Origin: Escherichia coli
GTDB lineage: Bacteria; Pseudomonadota; Gammaproteobacteria; Enterobacterales; Enterobacteriaceae
DNA: 64,000 nt
Reading direction: 5' to 3' (one strand)
Assembly: GCF_002854065.1 (NCBI RefSeq)
Contig: NZ_CP024147.1
Shown here: positions 36,730 to 38,767 of the stretch, piece after piece
Numbering within the stretch: the stretch's first letter is position 1
Layout of the letters: every line of letters begins with the position of its first letter
Notes under the pieces: model-generated
Seen by the model: the letters and a program-made list of their open reading frames with translations, nothing else
Databases searched by the model: none
What the model was told of the DNA's origin: nothing
Translations under genes and position numbers: made by a program

Positions 36730-37451
36730 TACCCAATAACAATATTATTCTGACACTTTATTCCTGTAATCAACAGCAAAAGTATCAAACCAGATGATAA
36801 TTATTTTCATATTGAGTTTTATTATTCTTTTATATTGTCAATTCTAATCATAATTTATAATAAATTTTTAATTATTATATTTGCAAAACACAATAATAAT
36901 AAATTTCTCATTTTTAATTGCAAGTAATATACCTATAACATTTCAAGAATAAACTTTCACAGGTGATTATGACCAATGATATTAACGCCGAACCAAAACA
37001 CCTACAAAGTAGTAACCAATAATAGGCATGTAACATTACTTAACACTGGAATTAAATATCATCACGCAATGTAAATATTTATAAATTAACCAGATTACAT
37101 TGACCATTTTGTTCAGTTTTATAATTATTCCAATATAATGATATTCCAGTGTAAGTAGTTCAGGTTAGTTCATTTGAATTTTATAAGTAGACATGACAAG
37201 AAGAAATATGCGTTACTTTTTTATCATTTCTGATCTTATTATCTATAAGTCGATCAAAGAAAGATTGATTACTATGAAATTTGATTCATGGAGTGACACA
37301 TGACAAAGGGGAATATATCTGAAAGAGACTTTGATATCCTGATCAAGCTATCAGGAATACATAGCGAGAAGGCAATTCTTGCTTTGAAAAAATACTATGT
37401 CGATGGGGTCATCAGGAAAATTGATCCTACCCACGTAATGTGGACACGGCC

Positions 37452-38295
37452 CTAAGCGAGATTATGGTTTTCAAATTGTTCCGGGCTGAGACCGCCACAG
37501 GCACTGTGACGACGCCAGCGATTGTAATCACACTCGATATAATTAAACACCGTTGCCCGCATTATTTCCCGGCTGCTAAAGCGTTCCCCGTGGATACATT
37601 CCACCTTCAGCGAATGAAAGAAGCTTTCCACACAGGCATTGTCATAACAGTAGACTTTCGCACTCATACTGCCACGCAGGTTGTGTCGCTTCAGCAGCGC
37701 CTGATAATCCCCTGAACAGTATTGACCACCACGGTCCGTATGAACAATGACGCTTTCCGGGCGTCTTCTCCGCCACAACGCCATTTGTAGTGCATCACAG
37801 GCCAGTTGTGCTGTCATTCGCGGTGACATCGACCAGCCAATGACGGCGCGTGACCACAGGTCGATGACTACTGCGAGATACAACCAGCCCTCATCGGTAC
37901 GCAAGTACGTGATGTCACCCGCCCACTTCTGGTTCGGGCCTCTGGCGCTGAAGTCCTGCTCCAGCAGATTCTCCAATACGGGCAGGCCATGTGCACGGTA
38001 GCTGACCGGGCTGAACTTTCGCCCGCAGCCCCTGACGACGCAGGCTGGCGGCAATGGTTTTAATATTGAACTCCGGCAGTTCGTCAGCAAGGCGGGGAGC
38101 ACCGTATCGCTGCTTTGCCTCAAAGAATGCCTTATGGACAGCGGCATCGCAGGTGAGCCGAAACTGTTGGCGAAGGCTCATCTGGTGACGACGCCTGAGC
38201 CAGACATACCAGCCGCTGCGGGCAACCCGAAGTACACGACACATCGCTTTGATGCAGAACTCTGCCCGATGATTTTCGATGAAGACATACTTCAT
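37452..38295 (-). pseudogene. IS3-family OrfB (DDE transposase) disrupted by an internal frameshift
   Basis: N-terminal part ([13 protein letters not shown]...RAKV) and C-terminal part (...[14 protein letters not shown]...DRGGQYCS...[11 protein letters not shown]...) lie in different frames with a junction near 38000-38050. Confidence 0.75.
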
Positions 38296-38591
38296 TTCAG
38301 GCGATTCGCGAAGTATGTCGCGGCCTTTTGGAGGATGGCCAGTTCCTCAGCCTGCTCCGCCAGTTGTCGTTTAAGGCGGACATTTTCAGCGGCCAGTTCG
38401 CTTTCGCGCTCTGACGAACTCATTTGTTGCTGCTGTTTACTGCGCCAGGCATAAAGCTGAGATTCATAAAGGCTGAGTTCACGGGCTGCGGCGGCCACAC
38501 CGATGCGTTCAGCGAGTTTCAGGGCTTCGTTACGAAATTCAGGCGAATGTTGTTCACGGGGCTTCTTGCTGATTGATACTGGTTTTGTCAT
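38292..38591 (-). CDS. IS3-family OrfA (helix-turn-helix)
   Basis: 99-aa [35 protein letters not shown]...[15 protein letters not shown]. Confidence 0.85.
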
Positions 38592-38767
38592 GAGTCACCT
38601 CTGGTTGAGAGTTTACTCACTTAGTCCTGTGTCCACTATTGGTGGGTAAGATCAGATCAACGAAGAGAAGATCAGCATATATGCACTAGAAACCAAAATA
38701 TCGAGCCAAGGCAATTGTTAACTTGCGTGGACAGATGCTCGTTATGTATTAAAATCCCATTGCTTAG

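Follow-up and report, generated by a model that had tools for sequence, protein, structure and literature searches.

A defective ISEc16 copy at the end of a truncated PapB/FocB-family gene in the argW island of Escherichia coli

The small gene that runs into an insertion sequence (IS) in the analysed window (the whole 64,000-nucleotide stretch of Escherichia coli contig NZ_CP024147.1, assembly GCF_002854065.1) is the 5' half of a PapB/FocB-family gene, and the element itself is a copy of ISEc16 with a single frame-breaking lesion. The 3' half of the gene is absent from the other side of the element. The history that best explains this arrangement, and that we consider highly probable as a whole, would have begun with the insertion of ISEc16 after codon 41 of a 76-codon gene located just within the argW-integrated island. 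The original DNA past the insertion point would then have been lost or swapped, and with it the gene's 3' half as well as an AraC-type regulator whose former presence is suggested by Salmonella, most likely by an IS-mediated adjacent deletion or by recombination with a second IS copy. Later, 11 bp of orfB would have been lost by slippage at an AAG repeat and nine private substitutions gained, which would leave a copy that makes OrfA but no OrfAB transposase. The IS now connects the papB-like stump with an unrelated module that carries a Shango defence system and, next to the IS, an HsdR_N-like gene. We infer both this order of events and the mechanism of the flank replacement.

The locus is an ordinary IS-mediated gene truncation in a genomic island, and both of its features are already annotated in RefSeq. 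A sequence-only reading had described it as a degenerate IS3-like element that interrupts a small gene next to the integrase. This description was accurate and its interpretation right in outline, but the identity of the element and the simple interruption of the gene have to be revised.

The insertion sequence and its decay

The element comprises the following features.

37422..38654, minus strand: defective ISEc16 copy (IS3 family, IS3 group) of 1233 bp, aligning end to end with intact 1244-bp copies
38616..38654, minus strand: left terminal inverted repeat (IRL), the same as the IRL of the intact copies L014, L017 and L024
37422..37460, minus strand: right terminal inverted repeat (IRR), the same as the IRR of the intact copies L014 and L017
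38292..38591, minus strand: orfA, 99 aa, intact, HTH_Tnp_1
37452..38295, minus strand: orfB (DDE transposase domain), broken into pieces of 126 aa and 231 aa
38325..38329, minus strand: A-AAA-G motif in CCAAAAGG, invariant in the alignments of IS3 and intact ISEc16
between 38018 and 38019, minus strand: position of an 11-bp deletion (AAGCCAGCCGG) with an AAG repeat at its bounds; the sole frame-breaking lesion

The ends of the element read TGATC...GATCA, and its terminal inverted repeats agree at 30 of the first 39 positions. Terminal repeats of the form 5'-TG...CA-3' are a hallmark of the IS3 family, as is the overlap of orfA (HTH) and orfB (DDE/rve) combined with a slippery motif, and both were found here, with frameshifting being predicted. 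The A-AAA-G motif occupies the position at which the programmed -1 frameshift of IS3-type elements occurs and, judging from IS3, may serve this purpose here as well. What is missing is an intact transposase capable of mobilising the element, also expected of a family member, because the 11-bp deletion splits orfB.

Three independent intact copies, each 1244 bp long, were used for comparison at the DNA level. The window copy aligns with them at 1233 of 1244 positions and is 98.2% identical end to end, or about 99% if the 11-bp gap is disregarded. From the first to the last base it differs from L014 by 12 mismatches and this one gap; its first 92 bases show no difference from all three intact copies, and its last approximately 230 bases none from L014 and L017. 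After restoration of the 11 bp, OrfB is 98–99% identical to many intact 383-aa transposases, which NCBI RefSeq labels 'IS3-like element ISEc16 family transposase'; the name ISEc16 as used here rests on these NCBI labels.

Canonical IS3 (1258 bp, strain DH5alpha) is only approximately 81% identical to the window element. The earlier estimate that the latter is about 25 bp shorter than IS3 turned out to be exact, and the alignment to IS3 that had been proposed for finding the deletion located three gaps, namely a 2-bp gap ahead of orfA, an in-frame gap of 12 bp within orfB, and a frame-shifting gap of 11 bp, also in orfB. As judged from the alignments with intact copies, 14 of these 25 'missing' bases are native features of ISEc16, and the 11 bp are the lesion. 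On the same basis the element is best classified as a defective ISEc16 and not as a degenerate IS3, so that of the earlier assignment the IS3 family and the broken orfB are retained.

That the element is nevertheless an old copy of IS3 itself, about 19% diverged and shortened by three deletions totalling 25 bp, is highly improbable. Its IS3 layout, the very similar terminal repeats, the 81% identity and the length difference would agree with such an origin. However, intact and apparently functional ISEc16 elements with the same 2-bp and 12-bp differences are found in many E. coli genomes and plasmids, and the window copy is only about 1% plus 11 bp away from them. Furthermore, synonymous as well as non-synonymous sites contribute to the divergence from IS3 in an otherwise open frame, as would be expected of two distinct functional elements and not of decay. 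The alignment to intact ISEc16 thus refutes the degenerate-IS3 identity.

The two pieces of orfB extend over 37915–38295 (126 aa) and 37452–38147 (231 aa, with rve, rve_2 and rve_3; both on the minus strand). The frameshift in orfB that had been noted earlier is accounted for by the 11-bp gap, since putting these bases back creates one uninterrupted orfB of 284 codons. In the alignment with intact ISEc16, nine substitutions are private to the window copy, several of them non-synonymous, and the real decay of the element, as far as it can be read from this alignment, is the 11-bp deletion plus these nine substitutions only.

ISEc16 has a two-ORF transposase and, by analogy with IS3, transposes by a copy-out-paste-in mechanism. 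Owing to its frameshifted orfB, the window copy cannot make its own transposase, but its terminal repeats are intact and mobilisation by the transposase of another copy is thus possible in principle. A 100-nt probe matched the deleted junction without gaps in approximately 231 records and the undeleted form in approximately 430 others. There was one such deleted-junction place per record in 14 sampled records with an exact junction; in one of these, H117, the probe gave an additional match of unspecified identity. Because the number of deleted-junction records is essentially that of the locus-bearing genomes (n = 244, see below), the defective copy, which occurs only at this locus, has not spread. 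This fits the view that the copy is immobile without a helper, and helper-driven movement would still find intact ends to act on.

The argW island, the papB-like gene and its Salmonella homologue

The island is marked by two features upstream of the element.

34593..34667, plus strand: tRNA-Arg (CCT), argW, the integration site of the island (ARAGORN)
34816..36033, plus strand: P4-type tyrosine integrase of the island (Pfam Arm-DNA-bind_3, Phage_int_M, Phage_integrase)

E. coli relatives have the annotated order mlaA-yfdC-tRNA-Arg-integrase. Strain 11368 of E. coli O26:H11 (positions 1–5634 of L001, compared with window positions 34593–36033) carries phage genes including torI directly 5' of the integrase, its integrase is broken by an internal stop, and the stretch lacks an annotated tRNA, unlike the window with its simple tRNA-integrase arrangement. 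Three adjacent minus-strand genes at 43270–49094 of the window match the Shango anti-phage system almost over their full length, with E-values of 7e-277 for the SngC helicase, 1e-187 for the SngB ATPase and 6e-103 for the TerB-domain protein SngA; their presence makes the argW island a defence island.

The genes adjoining the left side of the element are small.

37193..37303, plus strand: upstream ORF of 36 aa with its stop codon overlapping the start of the papB-like gene (ATGA); conserved in Salmonella
37300..37421, plus strand: native remnant of a PapB/FocB-family regulator gene, codons 1–40 plus 2 bases (PF03333)
37300..37455, plus strand: chimeric 51-aa ORF, papB-like codons 1–41, then 10 codons plus the stop supplied by the IS terminal repeat

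The plus-strand ORF that starts at 37300 and runs into the end of the IS at 37422 was confirmed, with the peptide quoted for it being exact. Its 51-aa product scores 41.7 bits against the Pfam PapB profile (PF03333), above the gathering cut-off of 29.4 bits. The domain is incomplete, as only profile positions 19–57 of 91 are covered, compared to positions 19–88 in the Salmonella orthologue (65.8 bits). At the same ORF position, RefSeq relatives have WP_000160236.1, annotated as 'PapB/FocB family fimbrial expression transcriptional regulator', and the IS is annotated in these relatives as a frameshifted IS3-family transposase pseudogene. No fimbrial genes are annotated or called nearby in the E. 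coli relatives or in Salmonella.

A search for an uninterrupted version of the gene in related islands, as had been suggested, was successful. Protein searches retrieved an uninterrupted 76-aa homologue on 142 contigs of Salmonella enterica, in which 38 of the first 40 residues are identical to the stump (84% identity at the DNA level) and which aligns to residues 26–86 of FocB in the solved structure 3M8J. The Salmonella locus has the order mlaA, a gene of the formate/nitrite transporter family, and an integrase of the same type, with the 76-aa gene located further downstream; beyond this gene lie an AraC-type regulator and a serine-protease autotransporter. The intact homologue in a matching argW-integrase setting indicates that the small gene is real, and together with the profile score it bears out the proposal that the IS truncates a small island gene. 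Two outcomes had been named as speaking against that proposal, an ORF devoid of homologues and an element that aligns full-length to a functional IS: homologues do exist, and the full-length alignment is nearly attained, the 11 bp being all that is missing. In the S. enterica argW island (L004–L007, positions 8001–14416), the PapB-like gene, an AraC/Rob-like regulator, a Peptidase_S6 fragment and a beta-solenoid/autotransporter ORF were identified, the last two of which look like a split serine-protease autotransporter; fimbrial genes were not found in this region.

Between E. coli and Salmonella, codons 1–40 differ by 14 synonymous and 2 non-synonymous substitutions (pN/pS 0.04), which shows that the gene was strongly constrained during most of the period after the two islands had separated. 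This ratio is compatible with ongoing selection on the stump and, to the same degree, with selection that preceded the insertion. The truncation point corresponds to FocB residue 65 (numbering of chain 3M8J), which we take, from PapB mutagenesis, to be just before a conserved Cys and the next helix, to which a role in DNA binding has been ascribed. Lacking the C-terminal half of the PapB fold, the 51-aa product is most likely non-functional; the stump is considered a pseudogene, with a small probability left for a retained dominant-negative role.

The overlapping 36-aa ORF differs from its Salmonella counterpart by five conservative replacements (pN/pS 0.19), and the non-coding DNA just 5' of it is only 73% identical. 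No match was obtained in a Pfam search of this ORF, which may represent a real, translationally coupled small gene.

It is improbable that the 51-aa stump is a retained functional small protein, for instance a dominant-negative partner of PapB, FocB or SfaB, and that the junction has been kept by selection. Such a role would be in line with the low pN/pS over codons 1–40, the identical 51-aa protein annotated in the relatives examined, the presence of the locus in 244 genomes of varied serotypes and hosts, and the conservation of the overlapping ORF upstream. However, the low pN/pS may date wholly from the time before the insertion, the covered part of the profile excludes what we presume to be the conserved Cys and the DNA-binding helix, and the tail of the protein is accidental IS sequence that is altered again in three alleles that have lost the IS. 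Slightly less probable still is the specific possibility that the stump with its 10 IS-derived residues, preceded by the conserved overlapping ORF of 36 aa, might interfere with full-length PapB-family regulators by offering an oligomerisation surface without DNA binding; if so, the dead IS would have been kept as the supplier of a stop codon and of the junction.

The junction, its distribution and its age

The DNA on the far side of the element is the following.

38655..38767, no strand assigned: right flank, a non-coding tail on the 3' side of the adjacent minus-strand gene; distinct from the papB-like 3' half

In BLAST comparisons, the homology with Salmonella extends without gaps and with approximately 84% identity to window position 37421, the base that adjoins the IS, and ends there. 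A comparison of the right flank with the Salmonella 3' half and the downstream 8 kb revealed no similarity beyond that of shuffled controls, and the larger downstream proteins of the two islands (the HsdR_N-like protein and its neighbours in E. coli) are unrelated. An apparent similarity between the right flank and the Salmonella 3' half in a MAFFT alignment was due to chance, as shuffled sequences scored at least as high in 26 of 500 and in 418 of 1000 cases; the best local alignment of the right flank with Salmonella was located elsewhere than this region. The term 'interrupting' therefore applies only in part, since the gene is truncated but its 3' half does not follow across the IS. No full-length version of the gene was found in E. 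coli, so that the ancestral E. coli arrangement is deduced from Salmonella only, and an exact-pattern scan of a species-representative genome collection with the 5' end of the gene gave no matches.

The gene adjoining the IS on this side (38768–41128, minus strand) encodes an HsdR_N-domain protein that has 786 aa in O26-like contigs. The window version differs from the intact O26-like version at four bases, two of which are C->T changes that create premature TAA stops (39317–39319 and 40829–40831), and hence is a pseudogene.

The 3-bp target-site duplication characteristic of the IS3 family is lacking at this site, where the flanking bases are AAT and GAT and thus differ at one position. Another ISEc16 copy, located inside an IS1, has the same element boundaries and a clean 3-bp duplication (GTT), which confirms these boundaries. 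A perfect duplication was found at only one of five independent ISEc16 loci examined; its absence here is therefore weak evidence by itself. Considering all flank comparisons together, the IS probably represents a deletion or recombination junction and not a simple split of the gene.

According to an alternative that we regard as unlikely, ISEc16 simply inserted in an already short papB-like gene of approximately 61 codons, ...VIRKINEEKISIYALETKISSQGNC*, and neither deletion nor recombination took place. The insertion would have made a 3-bp duplication of which one copy mutated later (AAT/GAT), and the IS-free allele would be expected to read ...AGGAAAAT(C/GATC)AACGAAG.... Virtual excision of the IS plus 3 bp indeed yields a 61-aa ORF whose frame stays open for 20 codons more before a stop, which fits an ancestral short gene but could be a matter of chance. 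The 20 additional residues add nothing to the PapB profile match (42.5 bits for the 'restored' ORF compared to 41.7 bits without them, a gain of 0.8 bit, with the Salmonella gene scoring 65.8 bits), and the Salmonella homology ends exactly at the IS boundary. The agreement of the flanks at two of three positions, with a point mutation after the insertion explaining the mismatch, is expected by chance in about 16% of cases (an estimate for equal base frequencies, and higher in AT-rich DNA). A further argument for a simple insertion would be the occurrence of E. coli contigs that have no IS and carry a 60-aa ORF. These contigs, however, lack flank bases (AAT or AT) that are common to the IS-bearing allele and Salmonella, and they differ among themselves, so that they look derived rather than ancestral.

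The IS-less alleles were detected in three short-read assemblies (L008, L009 and L010; Logan SRR10207506, SRR5438292 and SRR30008579), at a junction equivalent to window positions 37419–38660. Their flanks are 99.6–100% identical to those of E. coli O26:H11 strain 11368. Two of the runs share the junction GGAA|CAACG, and the third has GGAAA|CGAAG, which means that the losses in these O26-like strains took either 3+3 or 2+6 flanking bases along with the IS. Since the bases missing on the left side are shared by the IS-bearing allele and Salmonella, these alleles are derived, and we read them, from their junction sequences, as probable products of independent, imprecise IS losses and not as the ancestral state. 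The O26:H11 lineage commonly carries an IS-excision enhancer. According to PMC9943667, this protein promotes the transposase-dependent excision of IS3-family elements and is also capable of microhomology-mediated end joining. Its action is a plausible cause of the imprecise losses.

Among complete E. coli genomes, the 3.4-kb arrangement recurs with 99.8% identity in at least 221 and thus is no chance pattern. The IS lies between the flanks in all 244 locus-bearing genomes, and a sensitive-mode search of 5426 complete E. coli genomes with the joined flanks revealed none in which the flanks are contiguous.

Further variation involves IS3. In strain wlxctx60 (NZ_AP045833.1; positions 5401–6658 of L003), the same junction is occupied by a hybrid IS that has the right end of ISEc16 and otherwise is 98% canonical IS3; it is annotated with an intact transposase, and an autotransporter region has taken the place of the right flank. 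This hybrid indicates that the dead ISEc16 recombined with an IS3 copy and still is a substrate for recombination. Protein P0003 looks like an IS-less derivative of the wlxctx60 arrangement. Strain XDL (NZ_CP043033.1; positions 1501–2757 of L012) has an IS3-family pseudogene that appears to be a mosaic, mostly IS3-like but ISEc16-like across approximately alignment columns 200–350, which correspond to the 3' part of orfA, and provides further evidence of recombination between ISEc16 and IS3.

The window also contains two IS1 copies (23184–23951 and 51220–51987), which are 768 bp long each and differ from one another at 8 positions. Both are flanked by perfect 9-bp target duplications (TTTTGTCTT and AATAAAATC), and the copy at 51220–51987 is absent from the closest complete genome, a 99.2%-identical relative. 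The presence of the ISEc16 copy in all locus-bearing complete genomes and its lack of a clean duplication, set against the perfect duplications of the IS1 copies and the absence of one of them from a near-identical relative, support the earlier suggestion that its insertion is older than theirs.

Significance and comparison with known systems

Beyond correct annotation the locus is of little importance. It is, however, a tidy example of a dead IS that forms a module junction in an argW island and continues to be a substrate for recombination and excision, as seen from the IS3 hybrid in one strain and the imprecise losses in O26-like strains. Two lessons for annotation emerge: an apparent 'IS3 with deletions' may be another named element with one small lesion, and a gene that runs into an IS need not continue beyond it.

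Compared to intact ISEc16, the window copy has the same terminal repeats on both sides, the same orfA, the same orfA/orfB overlap and the same A-AAA-G motif, and it departs from IS3 by the same 12 bp and 2 bp. What sets it apart is the orfB deletion, which destroys the reading frame of the DDE domain, its nine private substitutions, which include a G->V replacement in the conserved KG-CYDNA stretch, and the absence of a 3-bp target duplication at its site. IS3 belongs to the same family and group, has the same gene layout and nearly identical outer ends (TGATC...), but with its nucleotide identity of only approximately 81% to the window copy and its length exceeding intact ISEc16 by 14 bp it is a different element, although similar enough to recombine with the window element, as documented by the hybrid at the same junction in wlxctx60. 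With respect to the PapB/FocB family (PF03333; 3M8J), the N-terminal 40 residues of the stump match the profile, and the E. coli gene is cut at about its midpoint. The FocB chain has 111 aa compared to only 76 aa in the intact Salmonella form, and the papB-like gene differs from the family also in that no fimbrial operon adjoins it.
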